Assembly (NCBI GenBank): GCA_934654475.1
Contig: CAKUFZ010000003.1
Location: 1,811-65,810 of the forward strand
Length of the DNA: 64,000 bases
Origin: an uncultured Coriobacteriales bacterium
GTDB lineage: Bacteria; Actinomycetota; Coriobacteriia; Coriobacteriales; UMGS124
Direction: 5' to 3'
Positions 2,692 through 46,772 of this stretch are shown one piece after another. How positions within the stretch are numbered: the stretch's first letter is position 1; each line of letters opens with the position of its first letter. A program made the translations under genes and the position numbers. Under the pieces are notes generated by a model. That model saw only the letters and a list, made by a program, of their open reading frames with translations, was not told the origin of the DNA and made no database searches.

Positions 2692-3465
2692 ATGCCCGTT
2701 CTCATGAACAAGGGAGACGACCCGCGCCGCGCCGCGTGGCTTTTCTACACCGACCGCGCCGAGCTCGACGAGTGGGGCCGCCAAATCGTGGAGGGCCGCT
2801 GGGACTCCGCGTGCCTCGTGGTAGACCCCGAGTCGCTTGAGGCCGCCAAAAAGGCCAGCTCACCGGTAGAGGTGTGGGCGCAGGCCAAGACCCTCATCCC
2901 CGAGGACTTCGACCTGGAGGCCGCACGCGGCGAGGTGATGGAGGCCACGCAGGCCACCATCGAGCGCGCGAAGATGGAAGCCGAGGCTAAGGCCGACGAG
3001 CGGGAAGGCGACGAGGGGGCCGAGGCCGAGGCCGACGAGCAGGAGGGCGACGAGGAAGCCGCTGACGCGAAGCACGCGTCGGAAGGTGACGAGGGCGAAG
3101 GTGCCTGCGAGGAGCCCGAGGGCGAGCAGGACACGCAGGGGGGCGACGAGAACCCCTTCGACTACGAGCCCGTCCCCGCGCCCGAGGGCCTGCGCATCCA
3201 TGTGGGCACCACCACCCGCCAGGCAGCCCTGAGCTACCTCATGGCGCATGAAAACGAGGAAGGCGAAGGCGACGAGGACGCGACGGCCGACACCGACCTG
3301 CCCGGCCTGCAGATGCTCGCCCAGCTCATCGACTACATGCGCGACTCGGCCGACGGCCTGCCCTCATTTGCCGTGTGGCACATCGACCCCTCGGGCATCC
3401 TGCGCATGGTGCGCGCCAAGAAGGTCAAGGCCATGGCCGGCAACGTGCTGAGCGTCAAGAACTAG
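2692..3465 (+). CDS. Hypothetical acidic protein (Glu/Asp/Gly-rich centre)
   Basis: GC3-rich ORF with GGGAG before ATG 2692 (alternative ATG 2680). Central low-complexity stretch EREGDEGAEAEADEQEGDEE. No family recognised. Confidence 0.6.
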   Translation: MPVLMNKGDDPRRAAWLFYTDRAELDEWGRQIVEGRWDSACLVVDPESLEAAKKASSPVEVWAQAKTLIPEDFDLEAARGEVMEATQATIERAKMEAEAKADEREGDEGAEAEADEQEGDEEAADAKHASEGDEGEGACEEPEGEQDTQGGDENPFDYEPVPAPEGLRIHVGTTTRQAALSYLMAHENEEGEGDEDATADTDLPGLQMLAQLIDYMRDSADGLPSFAVWHIDPSGILRMVRAKKVKAMAGNVLSVKN

Positions 3466-3474
3466 AAGTCCCGG

Positions 3475-3552
3475 GATGCGCTGTGGCTGCGTTCCTCAGG
3501 GCCTCATGTACTCCAGTACACATCGGCCCTGAGCGCCTTGCCACAGCGCATC
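3475..3552. repeat. 78-bp nested palindrome (13-bp outer stem, 9-bp middle stem, centre ATGTACTccAGTACA); member of palindromic repeat family 2
   Basis: gatgcgctgtggc (3475-3487) pairs with gccacagcgcatc (3540-3552). ctcagggcc (3495-3503) pairs with ggccctgag (3525-3533). The core gcgttcc..cctcatgtactccagta resembles the reverse complement of the repeats at 17.6 kb and 43.4 kb. Confidence 0.7.
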
Positions 3553-3586
3553 CCTGTCGCCTTTGGTTGAAAGAGAGTGCAAAATC

Positions 3587-7747: not shown

Positions 7748-8311
7748 ATGACGGTCTACTGCACGCAGTACCAATCTGACCTCATTGGCCCGCTTACCAT
7801 TGCAAGCGATGGCGAGGCGATCGTGGGGTGCTGGTTCGAGAACGACCGCTATTTTGGCTATGGCGTCAAAGGCAGCATGGCACCACGCGACAACCTGCCT
7901 GTTTTTGCCCAGGTACGAGATTGGCTCGACCGCTACTTCGCAGGCGAGAAGCCCAACCCACGAGAGTTGCCTCTTTCGGCACAGGCCACCCCCTTCCAAC
8001 TCCTTGTACGTGAGAGCATGCTCGACATACCCTATGGGCAGACGACCACGTACGGGGCCATTGCCAAGCGCATCGAAGCACAGACGGGCAAACGCCAGTC
8101 GGCACGGGCCGTCGGCGGCGCTGTCGGCCGCAACCCGCTCTGCGTCATCGCCCCCTGCCATCGTGTGGTCGGCTCCAACGGAAGCCTTACGGGCTTCGGC
8201 GGCGGCATTGACATGAAAGTGAAGCTGCTTGAGCACGAAGGCGTCGACATGTCGTCGCTCTACCGTCCAAAACGCGGCACAGCCATCAATCCCTCCGACT
8301 GGCTCGCGTAG
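7748..8311 (+). CDS. ogt: Methylated-DNA--protein-cysteine methyltransferase
   Basis: GAAAGGA RBS. Active-site motif PCHRVVGSNGSLTGFGGG and a preceding helix-turn-helix region. Confidence 0.9.
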   Translation: MTVYCTQYQSDLIGPLTIASDGEAIVGCWFENDRYFGYGVKGSMAPRDNLPVFAQVRDWLDRYFAGEKPNPRELPLSAQATPFQLLVRESMLDIPYGQTTTYGAIAKRIEAQTGKRQSARAVGGAVGRNPLCVIAPCHRVVGSNGSLTGFGGGIDMKVKLLEHEGVDMSSLYRPKRGTAINPSDWLA

Positions 8312-8337
8312 TGCACGGCTGACTCTGCCTGTTCTGA

Positions 8338-8420
8338 AGCGCCCCGCACGAACGACGCTTCCCTTGGCGGAAAGCGTTTCGTTGGGTTCGGGGGATATCC
8401 AAGGGACGCGAGGCGGGGAC
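8338..8420 (+). repeat. Repeat family 1, single unit B
   Basis: agcgccccgcacgaacgacgcttcccttggcggaaagcgtttcgttgggttcgggggatatccaaggg aligns with the units at 7.35-7.69 kb. Confidence 0.75.
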
Positions 8421-8480
8421 GCACTGCAGGGCTAACGATATTCTGTTAGAATCTCTTTAGATTTCTTCAAGGGAGGGCAT

Positions 8481-8741
8481 ATGCCAAGCATCATATCGAG
8501 CACAAAGTTGCGCAATGAGTACAACGAGGTGTCGCGAACCTGCCATGAACAGATGTCGCCTGTTTTCGTGACGCGCAACGGCGACGGCGACCTTGCCGTT
8601 ATGAGCATCGAGGCCTACGAAGCACTTGCACGGCGCGCCCAGCTCGTCCGAGAACTTGAACGCGGACATGCCGATGTTGAAGCGGGAAGGACGATGCCGA
8701 CAGCCGAAGCCATTCGAAAGCTGCGCGAGGAGTTCTCATGA
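8481..8741 (+). CDS. Type II antitoxin, Phd/YefM-like
   Basis: 86 aa with GGGAGGG RBS. N-terminus MPSIISSTKLRNEYNEVS..PVFVTRNGDGDLAVMSIEAYE is typical of Phd/YefM. ATGA overlap with the toxin gene. Locally lower GC. Confidence 0.8.
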   Translation: MPSIISSTKLRNEYNEVSRTCHEQMSPVFVTRNGDGDLAVMSIEAYEALARRAQLVRELERGHADVEAGRTMPTAEAIRKLREEFS

Positions 8742-9058
8742 CAGCATCCGAATGGAATGTCCTTGTCACTGAGACAGCCTATCAAGATTTACGTGAAGCC
8801 GCAGCGTACATGCGCGACACCCTGCTTTCCACCAAAGCCGCGAAGACGTTCATCGACGTATTCGAGGAAGCCGTTGGCGACTTGTCTACATTCCCCGAAG
8901 GCAGGCCGCTCGTAAGCGACTTCGACCTCGCCAAACGCGGCTATCGATGGATTCCCGTAGGAAAGTTCATGCTTTTCTACACGACCGATCGAGACGCCCA
9001 TACCGTAGTGGTTGAACGCCTGCTCTATGGACCCCGCGACTGGGCCAAAATGCTCTAA
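8738..9058 (+). CDS. Type II toxin, RelE/ParE family
   Basis: 106 aa with a 4-nt start/stop overlap with the antitoxin. ..YRWIPVGKFMLFYTTDRDAHTVVVERLLYGPRD is a RelE/ParE-type C-terminus. Confidence 0.8.
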   Translation: MTASEWNVLVTETAYQDLREAAAYMRDTLLSTKAAKTFIDVFEEAVGDLSTFPEGRPLVSDFDLAKRGYRWIPVGKFMLFYTTDRDAHTVVVERLLYGPRDWAKML

Positions 9059-9209
9059 GGACCAGGGCAAATGAATTGCCATCAGCCTGCGTGAGGCCCA
9101 ACATCCCGTACATACCAGCAGCATTACGGGCGGTAGTTCCCGACGCAAAGCCAACAGCGCAAGAAGCCTGCTCCGTACGCTACCTCGTGGACCAGGCATC
9201 CCCGATGAA

Positions 9210-9468
9210 GGGCGGGACGCTCCCGACGCGCGGCGTATCCTCGTATCGAAAGCTGCGAAAACCCGGGGCAGGGGCGCGCGTTGCGCGCTTCTGCCCCTTT
9301 TCTTGCTTTCACTGCGGAGGCCGCGCTCTGGGAGCGCCCCTGCCCCGCACGAGCCGCGTTTCCCTTGGCGAGAAGAGCGTTTCGCTAGGCGCGGGAGATA
9401 TCTAAGGGCCGAGTGCCTCGCTTCCCTTGGCGGGAAGGGCGTTTCGTTGAATTCGGGGAACGGCTAGG
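9210..9468 (+). repeat. Repeat family 1: unit A (9210-9307) plus about 1.5 units B
   Basis: gggcgggacgctcccgacgcgcggcgtatcctcgtatcgaa..cactgcggaggccgcgctctgggagcgcc is nearly identical to 7251-7370. It includes the hairpin ggggcag..ctgcccc followed by ttttctt. Confidence 0.8.
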
Positions 9469-9483
9469 ATCACATGCTGTCAG

Positions 9484-9511
9484 TGACAATCACTTACATT
9501 CATGGTATTCT
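9484..9511 (+). promoter_or_regulatory. Candidate sigma70-type promoter (TGACAA-16-TATTCT)
   Basis: Hexamers at 9484-9489 and 9506-9511, about 35 nt upstream of the 9546 start. AT-richer than the surrounding sequence. Confidence 0.35.
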
Positions 9512-9545
9512 GAGCGCACGCACCGGCGTGTGTTTGGAGGTCAAA

Positions 9546-11348
9546 ATGAACTGCACGGTACCAACGCAGACAGAAGTGACGGCAGTCATCAAGAGGATGC
9601 GGCAGCAGGGCACCGATGACGGGCTCTGTGAGGCTAAGTCTTGCGAGCACGAACTGGGACGAAGCGTGTGGGCGAGCGTGTCGGCCTTCGCAAACACCAA
9701 TGGCGGCCTGCTGTTGCTTGGCATCGATGAAAGCACGAACTTCACCGTGCCCGAAAGATTCGATGCGAACAAAGTCATCGCCCAGTTCATCGATGGCATC
9801 GGCGACGGGTCGGCCAATGGGGCGCGTCTTACGAACCCGCCCGCATATGAGCTTGCGCGCGTTGAAGTCGACGGCAGGCAAGCCGTTGCCATTCGGATTG
9901 AGGAAAACAAACCGCAGAACAAGCCCTGCTATGTCACGGGGCGAGGGTTACCAACAGGAGCCTATCATCGCGTCGATGACCACGATGTCACGATGAGCAC
10001 GACTGACGTCTTCGAGATGGTCAACCTCATGACGCCCAGCGCATCAGAGCGTGAGGAAATTGAAGATTCCTCAATGGCGAATCTTGATGGAGAGCTCGTT
10101 CGAGCATTTCTGGAGCGAAACAAGGGCAGCAGACTCAAAGGAATCTCAACCATTGACGAACAGCTACACTGGCTCGGCGTCACCTCAAAGAGCGGAAAGT
10201 TGTCCCTCTGTGGTCTTGTGGCCCTCGGCCAATTCCCCCAGCAGTTTTTGCCCACCTGCTCTATAGACGTCATTGCCTGGCCCGGATCCGCATTCGATAT
10301 TGAAGCCAACCTCCGCTACATAGACCGTTTGATTTGCGAGGGGCCGCTCCCCATCATGGTGTGCGATGCTGTTGCATTTGTAATGAGAAACCTGAGACAC
10401 TGTGGCGTCGTGCAAGGCGTCGGCCGCATAGATATCCCAGAGATACCCAGGGACGCCATTCGTGAGGCAATCGCAAATGCCGTAATTCATCGTGAGTACT
10501 CCCCCCAATTCCGCGGCGGACCGGTCAGGGTCAACATCTATTACGACTACGTTGAAATTACCAACCCAGGAGGCCTTTGGGGTGGAAAAAACCTTTTGAA
10601 CATCTCCGATGGCAACTCACGCTGTCGCAACCCAACACTCATGCGCATGATGAGAGACGTTCCCCTTAGCAGTGAGATCGGCACGGGAACCGAAGGTATC
10701 GGACGTGGCGTGTCTACCATGACGAAAAAGATGCGCGACCAGGGACTTCCCGCACCGTCCTTCAAGGTGACGCCCGACCAGGTTACCGTGCGGCTTTTCC
10801 GACCGAGCATCTGGCCGCCGGAAGTCGACCAGTGGGGCAACGTGACGTTTCCGGAAAATCCTCCAATCAAGATACCCGAGATTCGCATCTCTGAGGACGC
10901 GCCGCGCATCACCTCCCTGCCCGACTATGCCTTTACCGGTGAATGGTCGCCTTCTTGGATTGACAAAGACGGCTTCGCACCCGCGGGGTTTGGACCAAGT
11001 GCTGCCGAAAAAGCCAAGGGATTCCATCCGGCAGGATACGACCCCGTGGCGGAATGGCAGGAGAATCTCAAGGCGTACATACAGGAACAGGAGAAGCAGA
11101 CCGACGCGCAGATAAAAGCCGACGAGCAGGGCCGTTACTTCATGATGACCAAAGACGGCTGGGTGCTCGACATCCTGCGCGAGCGGTACCCCGAGCCCCT
11201 CACCATCCATGAGATCGCCGAGCGCGGCGAAAAGTCATTGCCCGTCACACGCCGTGCCATACGCGAGCTCATCGATGCGGGAGAGGTTCTGGCAACCGCC
11301 CCCGCCACCAGCCGCAACCGCAAATACCTCGCAGCAGAGTGCGCATAA
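9546..11348 (+). CDS. AlbA_2 (Schlafen-like divergent AAA) plus HATPase_c_4 domain protein with C-terminal winged-helix; putative nucleic-acid-binding regulator
   Basis: Track ORF 9474..11348 trimmed to ATG 9546 (GGAGG RBS). The N-terminus ..ASVSAFANTNGGLLLLGIDE.. fits AlbA_2. EAIANAVIHREYS.. is the RecG-like HATPase motif. The C-terminus LTIHEIAERGEKSLPVTRRAIRELIDAGEV looks like a wHTH. GC is lower than in the neighbours. Confidence 0.75.
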   Translation: MNCTVPTQTEVTAVIKRMRQQGTDDGLCEAKSCEHELGRSVWASVSAFANTNGGLLLLGIDESTNFTVPERFDANKVIAQFIDGIGDGSANGARLTNPPAYELARVEVDGRQAVAIRIEENKPQNKPCYVTGRGLPTGAYHRVDDHDVTMSTTDVFEMVNLMTPSASEREEIEDSSMANLDGELVRAFLERNKGSRLKGISTIDEQLHWLGVTSKSGKLSLCGLVALGQFPQQFLPTCSIDVIAWPGSAFDIEANLRYIDRLICEGPLPIMVCDAVAFVMRNLRHCGVVQGVGRIDIPEIPRDAIREAIANAVIHREYSPQFRGGPVRVNIYYDYVEITNPGGLWGGKNLLNISDGNSRCRNPTLMRMMRDVPLSSEIGTGTEGIGRGVSTMTKKMRDQGLPAPSFKVTPDQVTVRLFRPSIWPPEVDQWGNVTFPENPPIKIPEIRISEDAPRITSLPDYAFTGEWSPSWIDKDGFAPAGFGPSAAEKAKGFHPAGYDPVAEWQENLKAYIQEQEKQTDAQIKADEQGRYFMMTKDGWVLDILRERYPEPLTIHEIAERGEKSLPVTRRAIRELIDAGEVLATAPATSRNRKYLAAECA

Positions 11349-11384
11349 AACGCATGGAAACCGCCGTCTCATAATCGCCGGTCA

Positions 11385-11428
11385 AACATAAACAAAAGCG
11401 GGGGCGCCACGTTGCGTGACGTCCCCGC
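11385..11428 (-). terminator. Rho-independent terminator between convergent genes (probably bidirectional)
   Basis: Hairpin gcgggggcg..cgtccccgc at 11398-11428. On the minus strand it is followed by CTTTTGTTTATGTTT. Confidence 0.6.
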
Positions 11429-11458
11429 TTGGGTGTTCGTGCTTGGCGGAAGGCTCGC

Positions 11459-12055
11459 TTACTTACTTGCCTTCTCCTGCTCGGCGAGGTAGTCCTCGTA
11501 GGCCTTGGCGCCAGAGGCGGCCTCGAAGGCCATCTGGGCAGCCTGGAGGATGGCGTTGGAGGTCACCGTGCAGCCGGCGATGCCGTCAACGCCCTCGTAG
11601 GTGCCGGCCTCGAGGATGGCGTTGGCCACCAGGGGGCCCGCATCCAGACCGATGCCGCTCGTCTCCTTGAGGCGGGTGAGCTTGAAGTCGGCCAGCTTGC
11701 CAGCCTCGAAGGTCGCCTCAACGTTCACCTGACCGCCGATGCCGCGAGCGGTGCCGGCGAAGGCGCCGTCGTTGTAGCCGCCCTCGGCCGCGGCAAGTGC
11801 CTGCTCGGTGGCCGAGATGATGGCGTTGGAGGTCACCGTGCAGCCAGCCAGGCCGTCAACGCCCTCGACGCCACCCGCAGCCACGATGTTCTGTGCCACG
11901 ATGGGGCCTGCATCCAGACCGATGCCGCTCGTTTCCTTGAGGCGCGCAAGCACGAGGTCCACAAGCTGGCCACCCTCGATGACGGCCTCGACGTTCACCT
12001 TGCCGCCGATACCGCGCGCCGTACCCTTGTACAGTCCGTCAACATACGTTGCCAT
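11459..12055 (-). CDS. Tandem FMN-binding (FMN_bind) domain protein without signal peptide
   Basis: 198 aa made of two internal repeats, each ..GTARGIGG(K/Q)VNVEA..LKETSGIGLDAGP..EGVDG(L/I)AGCTVTSNAI... These match the FMN_bind fold and its covalent flavinylation site (consensus D..SGAT.TS). It starts 45 nt after the flavoprotein stop. Confidence 0.8.
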   Translation of the reverse strand: MATYVDGLYKGTARGIGGKVNVEAVIEGGQLVDLVLARLKETSGIGLDAGPIVAQNIVAAGGVEGVDGLAGCTVTSNAIISATEQALAAAEGGYNDGAFAGTARGIGGQVNVEATFEAGKLADFKLTRLKETSGIGLDAGPLVANAILEAGTYEGVDGIAGCTVTSNAILQAAQMAFEAASGAKAYEDYLAEQEKASK

Positions 12056-12100
12056 ACGTCAGTCTTCCCTTCTTTTTCCTGGTAGATGCCTTGAGAAGAC

Positions 12101-14107: not shown

Positions 14108-15679
14108 GTGAAGCCCACCGCATTCATTCGCAGCTCCATGGAAATGCTCGCGTCCAAGGACAGGCGATGGCTTGCGTTGTTCTCCCTTGCCATCGGCGTC
14201 GCCTTGGCATGGACCTACACCCCGCTCTTCCTGACCCCCTTGGGCACAGGCATGGGCGCGGCCCTCTTCAGCGCGGACGGCTCCGTCGTCGCCTTCTTTG
14301 TGGCAACCGCGCTCACCTATCTCGCAGACGCCGCCTTCGGGACCAAGCCGCGCGCAAAGGCCGCGCTGCGCTACGGCGTGGCACACACCGCCGTGGGCGT
14401 GGTGGGCGGAATGCTGCTCGCCGGCGCCTCGCTCATGGCGACGCCCGACGCGCTCCCCTTTCTCGACAGCCTCTCGGACGGCATCGAGCTGGGGAGCACG
14501 GTCGGCAACGCCAACCTGCCCCTGACCCCCGACTCAGGTCTCGTCATTGCCTTGGGATGCAGCGGCGCCATCATGGCCGCCTTCTCCTCGACCTGCGCCG
14601 TACTGCAGGCGTCGCGCCTGCTCAAGCGCCTCTCCCCCGCCCGCTCGGTGGTGGCATGCACGGGCGCCTTCATGGTGGCGGCAACCATCATCGTGTGCGC
14701 CGCCTTCGTGTCGGGAATCGCTGCAGGGCTGCTCATCTCCCTGGTGCCGGTGGTCACGCTGCTGCTGGGCCGCATGGCCGATGAGCGCGTGCCCTACGCC
14801 GACCTGTCGCGTCCAGGCGAGAAGAGCCTGACGCTCGTTCCCATCAAGCAAAAAGACGCCTGGCGCTACGGCGCCATCTCCCTGGGCCTCTTCCTCATGG
14901 GCGGTTGGGCCTACAACAACGCCGGGCAGTACAACCACCTGCCCCAAGACCTGCCCGCAATCGCCATTGTGCTCCAGTGCGTGGCGGTGCTCGTCGTGTT
15001 TGCCCTTGCCGCAGCGACGTTCCAGTCGACAAAGAACCCCATCGGCTACGAGCGCATCTGCCAGGTGTGCGTGCCGCTGTGCGCCCTGTCCATCCTGCTT
15101 GAGTTTTTGCCCGAGAACAACGCCGGCTACCTCGACGACCTGGGCGTATGTCTGACCTTCGTGGGCCTTTTGCTCGCCGACCTCATGTGCTGGGTCATCC
15201 ACGTGTGCACGGCGCGCGGCCCCCAGGCCCAAGACACGCGCACCTTCGGCATCATCCGCGCCATGACCTACGCCGGCGCGGCGCTTGCCCGCATCATCGT
15301 CTATTGGATCGTGTGGGCCCCGCTCGACAAGCCCAAGGTCGCCATGACCATCGGCTTTCTCATGCTCATCGTGACCATCGTGTGCCTGCCCACGGCGGGG
15401 GCGAAGGTCATCAGCGTAACCGCCAGCCAGCCCACGAGCCTGCGCGACCTCGACGAGGAAAAGCGCGAGCGCCTGAGCGGCCTCATCGTCTCGCACGGAC
15501 TCACGGCCCGCGAGGCCGAGGTGTTCGCCCTGCTGGTCGACGACCTCGACGCGGCCACCATCGCGCAGCGCCTCAGCGTGTCGAACGCCACCGTGCACAC
15601 CCACATCAGCCACGTCTACACCAAATTCGGCGTGCACTCCCGCAAAGAACTCGAGCGCGTGGTGAAGGCAAAGGAGTAG
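14108..15679 (+). CDS. Membrane-spanning LuxR-family transcriptional regulator (multi-TM N-terminal domain plus C-terminal HTH)
   Basis: GTG start with GGAAGGA RBS. About 430 aa of hydrophobic helices are followed by LTAREAEVFALLVDDLDAATIAQRLSVSNATVHTHISHVYTKFGVHSRKEL (GerE/LuxR HTH). Confidence 0.8.
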   Translation: MKPTAFIRSSMEMLASKDRRWLALFSLAIGVALAWTYTPLFLTPLGTGMGAALFSADGSVVAFFVATALTYLADAAFGTKPRAKAALRYGVAHTAVGVVGGMLLAGASLMATPDALPFLDSLSDGIELGSTVGNANLPLTPDSGLVIALGCSGAIMAAFSSTCAVLQASRLLKRLSPARSVVACTGAFMVAATIIVCAAFVSGIAAGLLISLVPVVTLLLGRMADERVPYADLSRPGEKSLTLVPIKQKDAWRYGAISLGLFLMGGWAYNNAGQYNHLPQDLPAIAIVLQCVAVLVVFALAAATFQSTKNPIGYERICQVCVPLCALSILLEFLPENNAGYLDDLGVCLTFVGLLLADLMCWVIHVCTARGPQAQDTRTFGIIRAMTYAGAALARIIVYWIVWAPLDKPKVAMTIGFLMLIVTIVCLPTAGAKVISVTASQPTSLRDLDEEKRERLSGLIVSHGLTAREAEVFALLVDDLDAATIAQRLSVSNATVHTHISHVYTKFGVHSRKELERVVKAKE

Positions 15680-15715
15680 GGCCGCCCTTGCTCGCCTGCT
15701 ATCGCTGCCACAAAT

Positions 15716-15763
15716 ACGTCCTTATTAATGAGCGAATCCACATTAATAAGGACGTGTTTTTGT
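15716..15763 (+). terminator. Rho-independent terminator of the LuxR gene
   Basis: Perfect 15-bp stem acgtccttattaatg/cattaataaggacgt with a 10-nt loop, followed by GTTTTTG. Confidence 0.75.
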
Positions 15764-15860
15764 GCTTATCTACATTTTTCAGTCGGAGATGTTCGACGTG
15801 TAAACGGAAGCACGGCAATCACTCAAGCCCGCGGCAATACGCAAAGAAGAGCTGGGCAGC

Positions 15861-15898
15861 AAAAAAACGGCCGGCCCTCGCGTTGAGGGTCGGCCGTC
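15861..15898 (-). terminator. Rho-independent terminator of the dmsABC-like operon
   Basis: Stem acggccggccctc/gagggtcggccgt with 1 mismatch. The minus strand reads hairpin plus TTTTTTT. Sits 45 nt downstream of the DmsC-like stop. Confidence 0.75.
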
Positions 15899-15942
15899 CT
15901 TGTGGGTGAAGCTTGAATTGCAAGAAATCCCGTGCGGTGCGC

Positions 15943-17526: not shown

Positions 17527-17550
17527 AGCGGGTTCCTCTCCTCTCAATAG

Positions 17551-17884
17551 TCATTCATGGGAGCGGGACGGACGGACAGCCCGCCCCGCGATCAGGTGAA
17601 ACAAAGAACCACGTGCTTTCAAACGGAGCGGCAGCTGCAAGGCGCGCGATGGCGCGGTGCGCGGTGCGGGCCTGTGGCCTACTGGAGTACATAAGCCTGA
17701 GCGCAACGCCGTAGCTGCGCCTCCGCGATCGGGTGAAACACTGGGCAACGCAAACTCAACGGGCCAAGCCGTCCGTTTAGACGGAGGCGCAGATACAAGG
17801 CGCGCGATGGCGCGGTGTACTGGAGTACATAAGCCTGAGCGCAACGCCGTAGCTGCGCCTCCGCGATCGGGTGAGACTCGGTCT
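17551..17884. repeat. Repeat family 2: about 2.3 tandem units (period about 138 bp) filling the DmsA/DmsB intergenic spacer
   Basis: Unit ends ccgcgatc(a/g)ggtga(a/g)ac at 17585, 17723 and 17861. A 57-bp block is identical at 17680-17736 and 17818-17874. Each unit is an imperfect palindrome (cggaggcgcag..ctgcgcctccg) centred on tactggagta. Confidence 0.85.
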
Positions 17885-20800
17885 CTACTCCTTGATCAGC
17901 GACTTACTCGTCTGCAAGCCGTTGACACCCGCGCGATAGTAGTTCATGCCCTCCGCTGCAGGATCAGCCGTGAGCCATTCCTTCAGGCGCGGGTCAGTGG
18001 ACTCCCAGATGACGGGGTTGCCGTCGGGGTCGCAAGGCACGGGGTTGCCGAAGGGCGAGTTCTCGGCCGTGGCCTTGTACACCACGCAGGGGATACCGCG
18101 CATCTGAGAGGCGCCGCAGATCCAGCACTGGGCGTACTTGTCGAGCGTGCAGTTGATGTTGACAAGCTCGAAGCCGTGGCTTGCGGTGTCGACCTCGGGG
18201 AACCACCAGCCGTGGTTGGCGTTGGTCGTGCCCTCCTTGATGCCGTAGTACAGGTCGATGACCTCGCGGACCTTGCCCCACGGAGTCTCAATCCACACCC
18301 AGTCGCCCTCTTCCAGACCAAGCTTGGCGGCGTCGGCGGGGTTCATCTCGAAGCGCGGGTAGGGCCACAGCTCGCGGCACCAGGGGAGCTGACGGTGCTC
18401 GGTGTGGAAGTAGACGGGCTGACGGGCACCGGTCGTCATGATGAAGGCGGCCTCGGGGTTGGCAGCAAGGGCGGCCTTGTAGCCTTCCTTGTTGATCATG
18501 TGCTCGTTCTCTTCCATCTTGCCGGCAACAGCCTGGTTCTCGCCGATCTGGTCGACCAGGGCTGCGTCGTAGAACTCCGGGTTGGCGATTTTGGAGTTCT
18601 GCGGCTCACGCCAGTGCGGGAACTTGTCCTCGTCGTCGATGTAGGACTCCATGATCGTGGACCAGATCTCCACCTTGGCGGTGGGGGTCATGAAGCCGGC
18701 CTTCTCGTCGACGGCGGGATACAGGTTGTAGCCACCCTCCTGACGACGATAGCCCATCTCCCAGCGGCGGTAGGTGCCCCAGCGCTCGGGATGGTACTTG
18801 CGGCAGTCGAACCAACCCTCTTCCTGGAACTTGGCGGCGTACTCCTCGAAGGTGGGGCCGTCGGGGAACTCGGGCGTCTTCCAAGCGTCGCAGGCAGCCT
18901 TCAGAACGCGGGCCTCCTGCTCCTCGTAGGACACGGTGCCGCCGCACTGGACGAAGTCCTCGACGTTGAGGTTGAGCCACTCGTCGTAGGCCGGGTCGGT
19001 GTTGTTGAACGGCACGCCCATGGCCTTGTAGAGAAGCACGACGAACACGGGGTCAAAGATGCACTCGCCCTCGGGCTGCTTGGCGCGCTGGCCGGCGCCG
19101 AAGACGCCGCCTGCACCCTGCGAGACGCGCGTGGTGTTGACCTCGAGCCAGTGCAGGCAGGGGAACACGACGTCGGCGCAGCCGTTGTTGGGGCAGCTCC
19201 ACAGGTTGATGTCAACCCAGAAGTCGAGCTTGGTGAGAGCCTCCCAGGCCTCGGTCAGGTTGGACTCGTTCATGAAGTCGCCCGACATGCACACGCCGGC
19301 GTGGATCTGGTAGGGCGTGTCGATCTCGTTGATGGAGTCCCAGATGGTGGCGGAGTCGGCCCAACGGTTCCAGTAGCGCAGCAGCGGGAAGCGCTCGGCA
19401 CTGATCTGCTTGGCGTTGCGCTCCCAGCTCGTCTTGGGGTTCGGCCAAGCGGTGGAGGGACGGTACGCGCCGCCCTTGCGCTCGGCGATCCAGCGGGCCT
19501 CCTCGTCGGTGGGGACCTTGTTGTCGTAACGCTCGGCCAGGGGCGAGTCGTTGTCGATCAGGTACTGGACGAAGTCCTGGATCTCGGGGATCTGGTCCTC
19601 GATGGACTTGTCACGACCCTCCCACGTGATGGCGTTCTCGCCGTAGTCGGTGGAAAGCATCGTGGCGCGGCCGGGGCAGCCGTCGACCTCAGCCTTGGAG
19701 GAACCGCGGTTGCCGGCAGGCTCGTCGGAGTTGCCCGTGATGCAGGCGATGATCTGCAGGGCGCGGGTGTTCTGGACGGCGTGGCCGGTCTGGTCGGGAG
19801 CGAGCTGGTAGTGGATGCCGCCGTTGCCCATGGCCGGGTCGATACGGGTCGTGTAGGTCTTCACGGCCTGCTCGATGAGCTCGGCCGGGACCTCGGTGAC
19901 CTCCTCGGCGTACTCAAGGGTGTAGGGCTCGAGGTTCTCGGCGAAGGCGTCCCACACGGTACGGGCGACATGCTTGCTGCCGTCCTTCCACGTGACCTCG
20001 ACCTCTCCCGGGAAGAGCGAAGGAAGCTTGGGCAGACCCTCGGGGTTGCACTCCTCGGAGCCGGCCGGGAAACGGTCGGGCTCGGTGGCGGGGTCGGCGA
20101 AGGTCGAGATGTCGGGCAGCCATGCGTCGGCGGCCAGCGGCTTGTAGGGATGCTCGACCCACATGCCGGTGGTGGGGATGCGATGCTCCTCGCCCTCCCA
20201 CTGGCAGGCCTCGGAGTCCCAGTAGGTGAGGCGCTCGTTGGCCTCGTCCCACACCATGAAGCGCTTGGGGGAGCCGTCCTCCTTGAGGTCGGCCTCGGTG
20301 AGCAGGCGGGTCCTCATGTGGATGCCGCCGTTCATCTCCATGAACCAAACGCCGTCGCCGGGCTCGCCCTCCTTCTCCTTGTCCTCGCACCAAAGGAACG
20401 GAGCGTTGGTCCAACGGCGCACGAAGGCGTCATCGTAGGCCTCGTTGTCGACGATCCACTTCAGCCAGGACAGCGACAGGCACAAGTCGGTGCCGACACG
20501 CAGGGGCAGCCAGATGGAGCTCTCCTTGCCCAGCGGGGTCAGACGCGGGTCGACCAGGATGTGGCAGGCAGCGTGCTGCGCAACGTCGGTGACGGTACGG
20601 TTGTTGGAGTCGTAGTTGGAGTACTCAGCGGCGGTGCCCCACTGCACGTAGACCTTGGGCTCAGCCTCGACCTCCATCCACGGGGAGCCGATCTCGTCGG
20701 TCAGGATGCCGCCGAAGTGACGCGGGCCCTTGCAGATCTCGTAGGCAAGGTGAGCGTTGGGCGTGCCGAAGACCTGCTTGAGGGTTCCGTAGGGAGCCTG

Positions 20801-21283
20801 GGTCCAAACGCGGGAGGTGCCGCCCATGGCGAAGACAGACTCGCCGCCGTACTTGTTGACGATCTCGGTGAGCTTCTCGCCCACGAGGTCGAAGCCCTCC
20901 TTGAGGGAGATGCGAACCCAGCCCGGATCGTCCTCGCCCTTGGGGTTGGTGCGCTTCATGGGGTAACGCAGGCGATCGGGGTGGTAGGCAGCCTGCATCG
21001 AAGCCTGGGACTTCGAGCAGCAGTGGCCGCGGCCGTGAGGCGTGGACTCGTCGCCCTCGACCTTGACGACCTTGCCGTCCTCAACGGTGACCCAAACGCC
21101 GCACTCGACCTTACCGCAGGCGCGGCAGGTGGAACGGATGCGCTTGACCTCGCCAGCGGTCTCGTCGGCACCCTCCGCGAGCGCCTTCATGGGCTCGGGG
21201 GCGCCCCCGGCCATGGCGCAGGCGGCGGCCGTGACGGCGGCGACCTTGACGAAGCTACGGCGGCTCATGCTGAGCTTGGCCAT
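17885..21283 (-). CDS. Tat-exported bis-MGD molybdopterin oxidoreductase catalytic subunit (DmsA-superfamily, unusually large)
   Basis: GAGAGGAG RBS. Twin-arginine signal MAKLSMSRRSFVKVAAVTAAA. N-terminal Fe-S motif CRACGKVEC..HCC. 1132 aa with molybdopterin-binding regions and a C-terminal beta-barrel region (..GDWVWIETPWGKV..). Confidence 0.85.
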   Translation of the reverse strand: MAKLSMSRRSFVKVAAVTAAACAMAGGAPEPMKALAEGADETAGEVKRIRSTCRACGKVECGVWVTVEDGKVVKVEGDESTPHGRGHCCSKSQASMQAAYHPDRLRYPMKRTNPKGEDDPGWVRISLKEGFDLVGEKLTEIVNKYGGESVFAMGGTSRVWTQAPYGTLKQVFGTPNAHLAYEICKGPRHFGGILTDEIGSPWMEVEAEPKVYVQWGTAAEYSNYDSNNRTVTDVAQHAACHILVDPRLTPLGKESSIWLPLRVGTDLCLSLSWLKWIVDNEAYDDAFVRRWTNAPFLWCEDKEKEGEPGDGVWFMEMNGGIHMRTRLLTEADLKEDGSPKRFMVWDEANERLTYWDSEACQWEGEEHRIPTTGMWVEHPYKPLAADAWLPDISTFADPATEPDRFPAGSEECNPEGLPKLPSLFPGEVEVTWKDGSKHVARTVWDAFAENLEPYTLEYAEEVTEVPAELIEQAVKTYTTRIDPAMGNGGIHYQLAPDQTGHAVQNTRALQIIACITGNSDEPAGNRGSSKAEVDGCPGRATMLSTDYGENAITWEGRDKSIEDQIPEIQDFVQYLIDNDSPLAERYDNKVPTDEEARWIAERKGGAYRPSTAWPNPKTSWERNAKQISAERFPLLRYWNRWADSATIWDSINEIDTPYQIHAGVCMSGDFMNESNLTEAWEALTKLDFWVDINLWSCPNNGCADVVFPCLHWLEVNTTRVSQGAGGVFGAGQRAKQPEGECIFDPVFVVLLYKAMGVPFNNTDPAYDEWLNLNVEDFVQCGGTVSYEEQEARVLKAACDAWKTPEFPDGPTFEEYAAKFQEEGWFDCRKYHPERWGTYRRWEMGYRRQEGGYNLYPAVDEKAGFMTPTAKVEIWSTIMESYIDDEDKFPHWREPQNSKIANPEFYDAALVDQIGENQAVAGKMEENEHMINKEGYKAALAANPEAAFIMTTGARQPVYFHTEHRQLPWCRELWPYPRFEMNPADAAKLGLEEGDWVWIETPWGKVREVIDLYYGIKEGTTNANHGWWFPEVDTASHGFELVNINCTLDKYAQCWICGASQMRGIPCVVYKATAENSPFGNPVPCDPDGNPVIWESTDPRLKEWLTADPAAEGMNYYRAGVNGLQTSKSLIKE

Positions 21284-21623
21284 ATCGTGCTCCTCTCTTC
21301 TTTCCTACATGACGTATGTGCTCGTGTGCATGCCGTGCCCCTGTGCGGGGAGGCTCGCGTCCTTGCACGCTTCCAGACTCTAGGGGCGCCGCACCTCTAC
21401 CCCCTCATTCCAACGGGTGGTTTTGGCTATTTGAGCGCTCTACACCAAACGGGATGATTGTGTCTGTGTGCGGATGGTCTATAACGTAACAGCAGGTACA
21501 TGGCTCATCTTGAAGTTGTTGGCATTATTGGGATACTCAAGTAGAATCATTCGGGGACAAACCGCGCGCCCACAGTCATGCCGGACGCGCAAAGCGGCAT
21601 ATGCCGCGGGACGGGGGGATTGG

Positions 21624-23294
21624 ATGGCACTGCGCATACCAAAGGTGAGCCTTCACGTGGAGGCAGCCGACGAGGGCGACTTGGGAGAGGTGCACGGCGA
21701 GGCCTTGGGCTTGGGCCTCATGCTTCTGCTTGCCCTCGACATGATGCTTGGAGGCGATCAGGGCTCAGGTGTCATGCCTGGCCTCATGCGCTACGCCTTC
21801 TGCGCGGCGGCCGCCGTCATGTTGCTCTGCGGCGCCCTTGTCGACAACCGCGTGCATGCGGTTTTCCGCACCTACAAGCCCGTTGTCGTCGCGATGGCGT
21901 TTTTCGTTCCCGGCGCCTTCTGCGGCATCGCCGGCGGCCACATAGACCCCTCGATGCAAACAGCGTTTCCGCTCATCGGCGGCATCTGCAACGGCCTGAG
22001 CATGGGCCTGTTCGTCTTTTTGTGGGGCATCAGCTTCGGGCGCCTGGGCCTGCGCGACATCACGCTGAACTCCGTGATCGGCGTGATCGGCGGCATCGGC
22101 GCCTATGTTCTGCTGCGAACCTTCCTGCCCGAGTCCCCTTTGCTGCATGCCGTCATCTCGCTTTTGCAGCTCGCCCACCTGGTGCTTCTGCGCACGCGCG
22201 TGACCGACCGCCTGCCCGACCCCGACATGCGCGAGAACACCTATTTCGCCGAACTCAAGGTCAAGCGTGGGTCGCTTGCGCTCGTGACGTTCCCCGCAAT
22301 GTTCTGCATGGGCCTGATTCTGGGCAACATCATCATGCATGCAGGCGTCATCATGAAGCCGCAGACGGGCCTTGTGGGGGCGCTTCTGTGCATCTTCCTC
22401 GTGCTTGTGGGAGGGGCGCTGGTGCTTGCGGTGTGCACGACCACCAGGCGACGCGACCAGTCGTTCGGCAGGGCATTTCACTCCATGGTGCCCATCATCG
22501 CCATTCTCATGCCGCCTTTGGCCCTCTCCGTCACCCAGGGCCTGTCTTTTGACAACCAGCTGCTGCTCATCAACTTCACCATCGTTGCCTCGATGGCATG
22601 GGCTTACCTGGGCTCGCTTGCCCAGGGCTTCCGCCTGTCGCCGGTGTTCCTGTTCGGCCTGGGACAGGGCGGCCTCGCACTGGGCTACGTGCTCGCCGCG
22701 CCTGTCAACGCGCTCGTCGCAAACACCATCGCCCAGAACATGCCGAGCAACGTGCTTGCCCTCGTAGTAAGCCTCATCGCGCTTGCAATCGCCAGCTCGC
22801 TGTTGCCGCGCCGCGAGGACATCATGGCCATCGTGGTGCACTCCTTCAAGCCGGCGGAGATGTGGGGCGCCGACGAGGAGGTCGAAGGCGCTCAGACTGG
22901 CGACGCCCAGACCGCACGGCAGGCCGGGGCCTGGGAGGCGGGGGCCGAGCGCGCGGGACGGCGCAACGACAACGCCATCCCCAAGAGCCACGGCGGCACA
23001 CCGTATGCCCAGCCCACGCCGCTGGCGGCCGCAGGCGCCGTCGCCGAGACCGACGAGGTGCGCAAGGGTCGCTTCGTGCGCCGCTGCGAGTACGTCGCCG
23101 ACACCTACCTGCTGTCGCGCCGCGAGACCGACGTGCTCTTCCTGCTGGCAAAGGGGCGCAACGTCGGCTACATCACCCAGCAACTCTGCATCTCCGAGGG
23201 CACCGCAAAGACGCACGTGAACCACGTGTACAAGAAATGCGGCGTGCATTCCCGCCAGGAACTCATCTGCCTCATCGACTCCTTCGACGCGTAG
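21624..23294 (+). CDS. Membrane-spanning LuxR-family transcriptional regulator
   Basis: Track ORF 21468..23294; the start at ATG 21624 (G-rich RBS) is preferred but uncertain. Multi-TM body plus LSRRETDVLFLLAKGRNVGYITQQLCISEGTAKTHVNHVYKKCGVHSRQEL. Divergent from the DmsA-like gene. Confidence 0.75.
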   Translation: MALRIPKVSLHVEAADEGDLGEVHGEALGLGLMLLLALDMMLGGDQGSGVMPGLMRYAFCAAAAVMLLCGALVDNRVHAVFRTYKPVVVAMAFFVPGAFCGIAGGHIDPSMQTAFPLIGGICNGLSMGLFVFLWGISFGRLGLRDITLNSVIGVIGGIGAYVLLRTFLPESPLLHAVISLLQLAHLVLLRTRVTDRLPDPDMRENTYFAELKVKRGSLALVTFPAMFCMGLILGNIIMHAGVIMKPQTGLVGALLCIFLVLVGGALVLAVCTTTRRRDQSFGRAFHSMVPIIAILMPPLALSVTQGLSFDNQLLLINFTIVASMAWAYLGSLAQGFRLSPVFLFGLGQGGLALGYVLAAPVNALVANTIAQNMPSNVLALVVSLIALAIASSLLPRREDIMAIVVHSFKPAEMWGADEEVEGAQTGDAQTARQAGAWEAGAERAGRRNDNAIPKSHGGTPYAQPTPLAAAGAVAETDEVRKGRFVRRCEYVADTYLLSRRETDVLFLLAKGRNVGYITQQLCISEGTAKTHVNHVYKKCGVHSRQELICLIDSFDA

Positions 23295-23351: not shown

Positions 23352-23370
23352 CCGACGCGGTCCAAACGAG

Positions 23371-23420
23371 AAAAGGCCGCCCGCACAAGCCGATTTGAAC
23401 GGCTGTGTGGGCGGCCTTTT
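23371..23420 (+). terminator. Rho-independent (bidirectional-looking) terminator
   Basis: aaaaggccgcccgcaca..tgtgtgggcggcctttt: a 13-bp stem with one G:T pair, A-run before and T-run after. Confidence 0.7.
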
Positions 23421-23440
23421 GCGTGCCGGCGCTGAAAATC

Positions 23441-33544: not shown

Positions 33545-33857
33545 CCACCCTCTCCAAAACGCGACGATTGGTGCTCGCTGCCCGTGCAAGCGCGGCGCCA
33601 GATGCACGCACGCCCGCAACGTCTGTGAGGCCCACCATATGGCCGGGCCTGGCGCACCCTTCGTATCGACGGGATGATTGGAGGTGGATTTAGTTCGCTC
33701 GCCCGACCGGGATGAGGTCGCAAGCTGGTGTTTTGCATGCAATCATCCCTGGGCGGCATTCATCGACCAAAGGGCTCGGCGGCCATGGACACTGGCAAAG
33801 ACCGACATTCGCTGCATCACGCCCCCCTGAAAAACGCCCCGCAGGCCCTCCCCACAC

Positions 33858-33900
33858 ACAAAAGGGGGCCGAATCGCATGTGCGATCCGGCCCCTTTCTC
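33858..33900 (-). terminator. Rho-independent terminator of the upstream flavoprotein gene
   Basis: 14-bp stem ggggccgaatcgca/tgcgatccggcccc with 1 mismatch. The minus strand reads hairpin plus CTTTTGTGTG. Confidence 0.7.
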
Positions 33901-33942
33901 ATTGCTCGATATAACTGACATGCCTCTCCGGCAGCTCGATCC

Positions 33943-43162: not shown

Positions 43163-43335
43163 GGAAACCTCCTGCCGAAGACGGGTACGTCGGCGCGCGA
43201 CCTCGGGCAGCCGCACACTTCAGCGCGGATTGTATGCGCAGCGCACGGCGAGGGGTTCCTCAGCACATTGTTATTCGGCGATTACTCCCATACGGCCACT
43301 CACCGCCGGTAAACGGCACCCACAACCACCCCACC

Positions 43336-43455
43336 CAGACGGAGGCTCATCTGCAAGGCGCACGGGGCCGATGTGCGCGGTGCGGGCCTTTGGCCTACTA
43401 GATGTACATGAGGTTCCGTGGAACGCGGCAGATGGGCCTCCGCGATCGGATGAGA
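43336..43455. repeat. Repeat family 2, single diverged palindromic copy
   Basis: cagacggaggctcatctgcaaggcgca..gcggtgcgggcctttggcctactagatgtacat..gggcctccgcgatcggatgag aligns with the units at 17.6-17.9 kb. The outer arms ggaggctcatctgc/gcagatgggcctcc pair. Confidence 0.7.
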
Positions 43456-43667
43456 TTTGCTCGTTAGATACCCCCAAACAAAGTGAGGCCCGGTGGGGGA
43501 CCGGGCCTCAAGGAGGGATGCGACGCTACCTGTTCGAATTATGGTGCGTCTTGACGGGTAAGGGGAGCCCGTCGCGCGTTCTTGAGGTAAGGGGGGCCTC
43601 AAGTGCCTGAAACGTATTATGCGCAAAGTAAGCCGACGTTTATGAACGTCATGTGCGTACACATTGT

Positions 43668-43730
43668 TGAAAAGAAACGCCCACGCCCTCGACATAAACG
43701 GCAGCACCGTCATGTCGAGGGTGTGGGCGT
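43668..43730 (-). terminator. Rho-independent terminator of the DtxR-family gene
   Basis: 19-bp stem acgcccacgccctcgacat/atgtcgagggtgtgggcgt with 1 mismatch. The minus strand is followed by TTTCTTTTC. Confidence 0.75.
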
Positions 43731-43767
43731 AGACGTACGAAACATCCCCCCGGTGTTCCGAACCCTG

Positions 43768-46652: not shown

Positions 46653-46704
46653 GCTCGAAACGTTAGACATGCTTCCTCACCTGAGGTAGCATGAACGTAA
46701 CTGA

Positions 46705-46746
46705 AGCGGGGGCGCCCCAAACATATTCGGGGTGCCCCCGCTTTGT
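46705..46746 (+). terminator. Hairpin after the flavoprotein gene (weak T-tract)
   Basis: 14-bp stem agcgggggcgcccc/ggggtgcccccgct with 1 mismatch and a 10-nt loop, followed by TTGT. Confidence 0.45.
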
Positions 46747-46772
46747 CAGCGGCGCCACATTGCAAAAAACTC

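Follow-up and report, generated by a model that had tools for sequence, protein, structure and literature searches.

Why are two genes of one operon held apart by several hundred nucleotides of repeat-filled DNA? The question is raised by a 64,000-nt stretch from an uncultured Coriobacteriales bacterium (contig CAKUFZ010000003.1, positions 1,811 to 65,810; hereafter the window; GC content 63.5%). In this window a DmsABC-like reductase operon, with all three genes on the minus strand, has a 358-nt spacer (17527-17884) between the genes for its catalytic (A) and Fe-S (B) subunits and a 6-nt spacer between the genes for its Fe-S and presumed membrane (C) subunits. Both lengths had been given in a preliminary description of the window, made from the letters of this stretch, and our gene coordinates agree with them. 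That description read the A-B spacer as about 2.3 tandem copies of a 138-bp imperfect palindrome, similar to repetitive extragenic palindromic (REP) sequences or bacterial interspersed mosaic elements (BIMEs), that may uncouple the expression of the subunits or mark a recent insertion. We find that the spacer consists of a non-coding foldback hairpin repeat arrayed head to tail, with two units complete and a third decayed. The same repeat lies next to stop codons at many other loci, nearly always in the sense orientation of the gene that it follows. On balance, we favor the view that these units are mobile hairpins resembling REPs and miniature inverted-repeat transposable elements (MITEs), carrying an orientation-dependent module, and that the array is probably co-transcribed with the operon and favors the catalytic-subunit mRNA over that of the downstream genes.

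Read on the coding strand, a complete unit consists of a 5′ arm followed by an 84-104-nt hairpin with two long stems, P1 and P2. The 5′ arm is present three times in the spacer (at 17586, 17723, and 17861) with a spacing of 137/138 nt. The palindrome, however, is not 138 bp: the hairpin itself is either 84 or 104 nt in a period of 118-158 nt. The 57-nt block reported at 17680-17736 and 17818-17874 is an exact match, with 0 such matches expected in shuffled sequences. Unit 1 has an intact P1 and a partly degenerate P2, and folds with -46.8 kcal/mol (z-score -5.2). Unit 2 is a chimera: its left half is of the X stem type and identical to unit 1 over the 57-nt block, and its right P1 arm is of the Z type. 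Because the right arm is of this different type, P1 of unit 2 cannot close. Folding of the units had been suggested as a check; unlike unit 1, unit 2 folds no better than shuffled sequence (z -1.6). Unit 2 also contains a 20-nt apex insert that defines a long-apex isoform and places the right halves of units 1 and 2 158 nt apart. Within the window this insert is confined to repeat units; it was found in 16 other loci, and one copy of the family has the 20-nt insert on both arms. The third "copy" of the preliminary description is reduced to a degenerate 5′ arm and a short hairpin (-23.9 kcal/mol, z -3.3), which is found in most strains, and the linker ahead of unit 2 (17727-17780) was also found in one other strain (L010). 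Tandem Repeats Finder did not call the array; all it reported was a 7-nt repeat that arises from the apex insert.

The two related copies that had been noticed elsewhere in the window were recovered both by BLAST and by a covariance model (101 and 77 bits). The copy at 3460-3568 occupies the whole gap between its flanking genes in the sense orientation, its hairpin beginning 7 nt past a TAG stop at 3463-3465, and folds with -60.1 kcal/mol (z -9.9). The length of this gap is identical in all 8 other assemblies listed, and the element is fixed in the contigs that encode the exact protein. The copy at 43329-43455 lies downstream of a canonical terminator and folds with -49.3 kcal/mol (z -4.8). 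Weak covariance-model matches at 11386-11441, 23361-23431, 33850-33910, 43664-43742, and 46695-46754 are terminator-type hairpins, several with a T-run, and were not counted as members. The genuine terminators of the window look canonical and unlike the repeat family.

The unit is built from variable stems around an invariant interior. P1 is 11-15 bp, variable in sequence, and is followed by a closing C-G pair; then come the core features, in order a 3′ CUU in an asymmetric loop, an invariant 3-bp GCG/CGC helix, and a 5′ UUS bulge. P2 (8-10 bp, variable) follows, and beyond it a small internal loop leads to an invariant GUAC/GUAC stem and a 4-5-nt loop ending in A. The P1 and P2 stems vary freely provided that pairing is kept. 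We built a seed alignment of nine distinct units from the dms locus of several strains plus the 3460 copy, and a covariance model of 110 positions. In the nine-unit alignment, 17 of 32 pairs have compensatory double changes, and the pairs form one single long hairpin. Across 146 hits, 89.4% of cells are paired compared to 67.3% in shuffles, double-change cells number 970 compared to 272, and the covariation score is 0.493 compared to ≤0.10 when the partners are slid; as this alignment was fitted to the covariance model, these values are biased toward the proposed structure. The copies from distant phyla, taken alone, have 85.4% pairing in P1/P2, versus 61.8% in shuffles and 24-42% when slid. 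In addition, changes in P2 are compensated at a syntenic locus after glnS in Fibrobacter.

AT-rich copies from Sulfurimonas-like contigs (L024, L026, L146, L149, L153, L158, L174, L177, L210, L233, L237, L240, L246, and L248) have a peculiarity of their own. Their core segment GCGTTGCT is able to pair locally with an upstream AGCAACGC, in competition with P1, and their P2 region is conserved in sequence yet unpaired.

The interior of the hairpin served as the search pattern (about 21 specified bases, stems unconstrained), which recovers all 4 window units, and 15 of 16 units with an apex from the spacers of ten strains. Scans with this pattern returned at least 111 stretches in reference genomes and at least 120 in Joint Genome Institute (JGI) metagenomes, and the covariance model identified at least 146 units, spread over 100 of the 111 genome loci listed. 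Among the matches listed, the majority of units are in metagenome-assembled genomes (MAGs) of gut Coriobacteriales. The major subfamily there forms head-to-tail arrays with a 96-97-nt period directly past stop codons, in which the stems differ from unit to unit and each unit ends in a TTTT run. The 26-nt core is found within long hairpins of at least seven phyla (Actinomycetota, Planctomycetota, Eremiobacterota, Bdellovibrionota, Pseudomonadota, Campylobacterota, and Fibrobacterota), with examples in Planctomycetota, Pseudonocardia, Actinokineospora, Streptomyces, Eremiobacterota, Bdellovibrio, Burkholderiales, Sulfurimonas, and Fibrobacter. These distant copies score 30-69 bits, and the GC content of their stems tracks that of the host, from 32% to 75%. 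Pattern matches in Janthinobacterium (L016) and Opitutales (L018, L047) failed the covariance model and were taken as chance. A scan of viral_contigs with the core pattern gave 0 hits, which argues that the element is not phage-borne. Rfam 15 gave 0 hits in the window at the gathering score and only chance-level hits at E values up to 10. A palindromic extragenic repeat or MITE is a known kind of element; for the combination of an invariant interior with free stems, found across phyla in the sense orientation and close to stop codons, a limited literature search gave no earlier description. The same limited search found nothing specific on repeats or MITEs of Eggerthella or Coriobacteriia.

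Strains that share the operon differ in its spacer. The index of assemblies lists the identical Fe-S protein in 629 blocks, ten of which we analyzed (most are named as scaffolds from European Nucleotide Archive metagenomes). With the window included, these 11 strains have A-B spacers of 200, 234, 318, 332, 335, 339, 358, or 448 nt, with 1-3 units each, and 10 of the 11 spacer sequences are distinct. The spacers share a mean identity of 64% (minimum 42%), compared to 96-100% (mean 97%) for the coding DNA on either side. Four or more stem lineages (X, Y, Z, and W) are represented among the units, some of which are chimeric with the crossover at the conserved apex. At the DNA level the locus gains, loses, and recombines its units, which is why strains differ here. 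The recent change that had been suspected at this locus is borne out, as a recently rearranged and polymorphic site. An identical spacer in all relatives and no other genomic copies had been named as observations that would speak against a role for the repeats; we found the reverse, with spacers that differ and hundreds of copies elsewhere. At the site equivalent to window 12056-12100, one related locus (L048) contains a unit and the window contains none.

Among reference genomes, uncultured Coriobacteriaceae/Coriobacteriales MAGs come closest, with UMGS124 at 94-97% and CAKUAI at about 95%. Reference bins titled Acutalibacteraceae (CAVEWV; loci L023, L053, L061, L074, L078, L081-L083, L089, and L090) and Alistipes onderdonkii (CAVJGP; loci L042, L064, L068, L071, L079, and L113) have many contigs with Coriobacteriales-type elements, and one of these loci (L083) is orthologous to the window operon (91% identity). 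Mis-binning is the probable reason for these contigs.

The placement of the family relative to genes is highly asymmetric. Genes were called as our own open reading frames (ORFs), selected by GC content at third codon positions (GC3) or by length, and an element was scored as adjacent to a stop codon if it fell within -12 to +30 nt of it. By this measure 59 elements are in sense and 3 in antisense orientation, and after collapsing orthologous genes the bias remains at 42 sense versus 2 antisense gene families, with 1 mixed (p = 1e-10). At 76 of 90 Coriobacteriales-type loci the gene upstream has the sense orientation. In 53 of 58 cases the model match starts 1-9 nt before the upstream ORF ends, which puts the start of the hairpin 3-11 nt past the stop. 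An independent metagenome sample gave an adjacent sense ORF end (≥100 aa) for 33 of 48 elements, compared to 6.2% for random placement; this sample, which includes some duplicate sequences, has 24 sense-only and 2 antisense-only cases. Convergent gene pairs have one sense copy for each gene, showing that the bias follows transcription and not replication. The placement rule is also kept in other phyla. It applies equally to AT-rich genomes, which are full of TA sites, and a shortage of such sites therefore cannot account for it.

The genes that precede the elements include groEL and accB in Coriobacteriales MAGs and groES, rpsD, metG, glnS, and purH in other phyla, and one copy lies between ahpC and ahpF. 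Some copies fill the entire intercistronic gap, 7-25 nt ahead of the next start codon. This gene context fits either a stabilizer or an attenuator. Syntenic copies are retained as well, at 10 Fibrobacter loci behind glnS and at 6 loci of Sulfurimonas-like contigs behind purH. A few antisense members of the window subfamily abut the start codon of the neighboring gene (...CCAT, followed by AGTCTCTCCCGATCGCGG) at L012 4487-4597, L089 6837-6946, and L214 4246-4355; in L012 and L089 this neighbor is fabZ, and the accB-fabZ junction of other MAGs has a sense copy of another subfamily. A Burkholderiales contig has two oppositely oriented copies just after groES (L066 3546-3788; L211 11531-11773). 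As a separate observation on stop codons, TGA is nearly unused: the 41 well-supported genes of the window end in TAG (22), TAA (18), or TGA (1), and other genes in the related MAG loci (L011-L121) end in TAG (162), TAA (133), or TGA (26).

Signs of mobility are present in Streptomyces boncukensis, where six copies align with sharp ends and 22-nt perfect terminal inverted repeats (GTGCCGTGRCCGGAAAGGTT). Five of these copies have both flanks, which read CTA before the element and TAG or TAA after it; duplication of a TA (or CTA) target by an IS630- or IS5-type MITE would look like this. Copies in Pseudonocardia, Actinokineospora, and Planctomycetota likewise end in CTA...TAG. Outside S. boncukensis the foldback comprises the whole element, and the outer arms of the window subfamily are not inverted repeats. 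The filled (L048) and empty (window) pair is too diverged in its spacer for a target duplication to be read. In about 1.9 Mb of sampled loci, a survey that was not exhaustive, we found no transposase, REP-associated tyrosine transposase (RAYT), or shared neighbor gene beside the copies; the neighbors and recurrent ORFs are unrelated housekeeping or metabolic genes, and a split-half search for an autonomous element in the same loci returned only noise. Some S. boncukensis copies (L087, L099, and L111) contain nested insertions of a second small palindrome, CCCCCAGCTACCGCTGGGAGGTGCCCCCT. Core conservation across phyla, sense placement close to stops, and MITE-like ends are all features that the preliminary description could not see from the window.

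Several kinds of known element come close to the family. REPs, BIMEs, and REPINs are likewise extragenic, multi-copy imperfect palindromes 3′ of genes, often within about 15 nt of the stop and variable between strains, and the known effects of REPs (mRNA stabilization, partial termination, and ribosome stalling) are those proposed for the array. The earlier comparison to REP/BIME elements stands for extragenic position, copy number, and location 3′ of genes, and does not extend to REPs in the strict sense: units of this family are 84-104 nt, and up to about 190 nt in Streptomyces, whereas REPs are 20-40 nt; its arrays run head to tail, whereas BIME units alternate in orientation. The comparison is less clear-cut for the invariant GTAG or CGTC tag of REPs: TAG, GTAG, or TAA is often found ahead of the hairpin, coinciding with the stop codon, but at a spacing of 3-11 nt and without being invariant. 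Moreover, this family conserves the center of the hairpin and not its foot, its core is common to several phyla whereas REP families are lineage-specific, and no RAYT gene was found beside its copies in the sampled loci. The E. coli REP consensus, which we take to have the layout P1, AAG/CUU mismatch, and GCG/CGC helix, resembles the core, a likeness that we take as no more than a lead. In its hairpin, RAYT recognizes a bulge in the stem together with a flanking tag (PMC3479197), an example of how an enzyme could read such a core.

Foldback MITEs (Correia/NEMIS of Neisseria, ERIC, RUP, and IS630-derived elements) share a size of 100-200 bp, lack of coding capacity, a hairpin over the whole length, TA or CTAG flanks (in the Streptomyces copies), presence/absence polymorphism and, as we infer for the array, co-transcription with neighboring genes. 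Correia and ERIC elements are subject to RNase III/E processing and have orientation-dependent effects on mRNA. Classical MITEs conserve their termini while the interior drifts; here the termini are lineage-specific and the interior core is invariant, the copies are nearly always sense with a position tied to the stop codon, and no cognate insertion sequence was found in the sampled loci. The intrinsic terminators and 3′ stem-loops of Actinobacteria are also sense, stop-proximal, long, and GC-rich, some with a run of four T residues, but they differ in that this family has a conserved sequence core, tandem arrays, and mid-operon copies, and in that the window units have no U-tract.

The reading that we favor for the dms operon would work as follows. 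The array would be transcribed as part of the operon mRNA, and each intact unit would fold into an RNA hairpin of approximately -47 to -60 kcal/mol. The hairpin could block 3′-to-5′ decay of the catalytic-subunit segment and/or partly stop RNA polymerase, leaving the catalytic subunit with more message than its Fe-S and membrane partners, in the manner of E. coli REP elements. The invariant core would be the part read by whatever moves or binds the element. There is precedent for both effects, as REP325 in the E. coli yjdMN operon attenuates downstream transcription and stabilizes upstream mRNA (bioRxiv 10.64898/2026.03.23.713779). REPs ≤15 nt from a stop codon stall ribosomes according to work cited in PMC12306157, and GTAG REPs are able to supply TAG stop codons (PMC3733652). 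The components of this reading differ in strength. We are highly confident that the units belong to an interspersed, mobile or recombining hairpin-repeat family, and it is likely that their orientation matters at the RNA or strand level. That the array alters the A:B/C expression ratio of the dms operon is a tentative proposal, drawn from analogy, which may well prove wrong.

A number of observations weigh against this reading. The RNA-level effect of the array is pure inference. The first hairpin of the spacer begins 21 nt past the stop, beyond both the 15-nt range of ribosome stalling and the norm of the family. The degenerate P2 of unit 1 and the unclosable P1 of unit 2 make the spacer copies resemble decaying elements more than maintained ones, and the presence of anywhere from 1 to 3 units in strains with the identical Fe-S protein means that no particular dosage is needed. 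The units of the window are not followed by a U-tract, and a terminator scan gave only a weak hit inside unit 1. On the sense strand, stem mismatches (counted after removing the conserved AAC/GAA loop) comprise 75 G·U and 105 A·C; the lack of a G·U excess fits palindromy kept in the DNA and not selection on the RNA. Finally, since no transposase, RAYT, or partner was found, mobility is deduced only from the distribution, the polymorphism, and the Streptomyces ends.

Much of the same evidence would suit selfish or neutral DNA, with foldback MITEs surviving where they are least harmful, past stop codons, and persisting in this spacer as decaying junk without effect on expression. The sharp ends, 22-nt terminal inverted repeats, and CTA...TAG or TAA flanks of the S. 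boncukensis copies are what such an origin would leave, as are stems without G·U bias, isoforms separated by apex insertions and deletions, chimeric and degenerate units in the window, and a copy number that is free to vary between strains. We nevertheless regard it as fairly unlikely, because a symmetric TA-flanked foldback would be expected in both orientations and two independent samples gave sense to antisense ratios of 42:2 and 24:2. This near-absolute bias, together with the stop proximity across phyla, points to either a selected role in the sense transcript or a strand-specific installation. The stop-codon placement in AT-rich genomes, an asymmetric core that stays constant from phylum to phylum although the ends vary, and the compensated stem changes at the Fibrobacter glnS locus also argue against junk. 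A different possibility is a dedicated cis-acting RNA motif that acts where translation stops or at the 3′ end of the mRNA. Its core would be either bound by a conserved factor or a small ribozyme, and the foldback and MITE features would be only its vehicle. The double-bulge and GUAC core is invariant in at least seven phyla within stems that match host GC, its position is strictly sense at 3-11 nt past stops, it is kept at the syntenic glnS and purH sites, and the competing local hairpin in Campylobacterota-like copies suggests alternative structures. On the other side, no Rfam family matches, the host genes have no common function beyond many being housekeeping genes, polymorphic copy number and broken units are tolerated, G·U enrichment is absent, and no candidate partner was found in the sampled loci; we judge a dedicated motif unlikely. 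Several specific RNA and DNA elements were rejected. A hammerhead ribozyme is contradicted by the wrong spacing of CUGAUSG...GAAAG in the arms and the lack of an Rfam hit, an integron attC site by the absence of R''/R' boxes (RYYYAAC...GTTRRRY) and by units that follow ordinary housekeeping genes, and SECIS or PYLIS by size and by TAG or TAA stops on ordinary genes; a CRISPR repeat and a half parS site were also considered and rejected.

Alternatively, the array could be a set of transcription terminators dividing the locus into two transcription units, of which the second, comprising the Fe-S and membrane genes, is expressed from a promoter of its own. Sister subfamilies do end in a TTTT run right after the hairpin, and actinobacterial 3′ ends are often long stems without U-tracts (PMC13613805). 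However, a consensus scan of the spacer found no promoter-like site, the units are trailed by UCUAAA or UUUGAAAG in place of a U-tract, the genuine terminators of the window are different, and many members lie 7-25 nt before the next start codon inside evident operons (acc-fab and ahpCF), making this explanation improbable. It is harder still to credit a simple tandem-repeat locus of the MIRU type, a variable number tandem repeat (VNTR) made by replication slippage with no interspersed family behind it. The MIRU-type VNTRs of Mycobacterium do have tandem units inside operons, and copy number likewise differs between strains at this intercistronic site, but the units here are structured hairpins, adjacent ones are of different stem lineages (X, Y, Z, and W) and not copies of one another, and the same lineages are dispersed at many unrelated loci in many genomes. 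Tandem Repeats Finder, moreover, finds no array.

Beyond the mobile hairpins that we favor, a wider possibility can be raised, although we hold it with little confidence. The family might represent an undescribed, cross-phylum class of structured element, defined by its double-bulge and GUAC core and placed or kept on the coding strand within about 10 nt past stop codons. Such an element could be an RNA module linking the end of translation to mRNA fate, through a conserved factor or self-processing, or the recognition site of a strand-specific, stop-targeting mobilization; in either case the foldback-MITE body would be the vehicle.

The catalytic gene ends in a TAG stop just ahead of the array, and its product scored under all NCBIfam cut-offs; the presumed membrane subunit gave no family match. 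The ribosome-binding region of the Fe-S gene is undamaged in all 11 strains of the spacer alignment. Coordinates of the operon, the array, and the other family members of the window are collected in the table.

Features of the dms operon, its intercistronic array, and related repeats in the window
Feature	Position	Strand	Evidence or remark
Catalytic subunit gene, bis-MGD (molybdopterin guanine dinucleotide) molybdopterin oxidoreductase, 1132 aa, twin-arginine translocation (TAT) signal	17885-21283	-	Pfam Molybdop_Fe4S4, Molybdopterin, Molydop_binding, TAT_signal
Lead segment, stop codon to hairpin 1, with conserved 5′ arm TCTCACCCGATCG	17865-17884	-	Sequence
Unit 1 hairpin, 84 nt, X type, short apex	17781-17864	-	Covariance-model match 17768-17876, 103.9 bits
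Linker with small local hairpin, then 5′ arm of unit 2	17727-17780	-	Sequence, fold
Unit 2 hairpin region, 104 nt, recombinant, long apex	17623-17726	-	Covariance-model match 17612-17738, 64.1 bits
20-nt apex insert GGCCACAGGCCCGCACCGCG, defines long-apex isoform	17660-17679	-	Sequence
Degenerate third unit, 5′ arm TTTCACCTGATCGCGG then short GC hairpin, no core	17550-17601	-	Covariance model 19.7 bits
Ribosome-binding region GAGAGGAGAGGAA of Fe-S subunit gene	17527-17549	-	Spacer alignment, 11 strains
DmsB-like 4Fe-4S subunit gene, 223 aa	16855-17526	-	Pfam Fer4_11
Presumed membrane subunit gene, 301 aa	15943-16848	-	6 nt after Fe-S gene
Family member, 261-aa gene to PatB-type C-S lyase gene	3460-3568	+	Covariance model 101.1 bits
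Family member, long-apex isoform, MntR-like gene to GntP transporter gene, sense	43329-43455	-	Covariance model 77.2 bits

LuxR/GerE-type regulator genes lie on either side of the operon (14108-15679 and 21468-23294, both on the plus strand). Just 3′ of the membrane-subunit gene (window 15680-15942; about 4700-6400 in L001-L010), gene content is strain-dependent: most strains have a gene of 529-537 aa with AAA-ATPase_like/PDDEXK_9 domains, one has a 433-aa AAA_14/DUF4143 gene, and the window and L005 have neither. This post-operon gap of the window contains an AT-rich (40% GC), near-perfect palindrome, ACGTCCTTATTAATG...CATTAATAAGGACGT, at 15703-15767; the weak covariance-model match at 15703 is this palindrome, which is not a family member. 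Elsewhere in the window, the region 8300-11460 has a lower GC content (54-61%) and no gene that passes the GC3 filter, and includes a 624-aa ORF at 9474-11348 on the plus strand.

The catalytic subunit belongs to an expanded molybdopterin reductase family in a common gut Coriobacteriales species. For its operon, the array could act as a non-coding dial, different from strain to strain, on the ratio of catalytic to electron-transfer subunits. A conserved interior, freely varying stems, a strict sense orientation, and stop proximity make up an unusual mix when set against known REP and MITE families. The family as a whole offers a concrete way to test how palindromic repeats come to be targeted to gene ends, or selected there.

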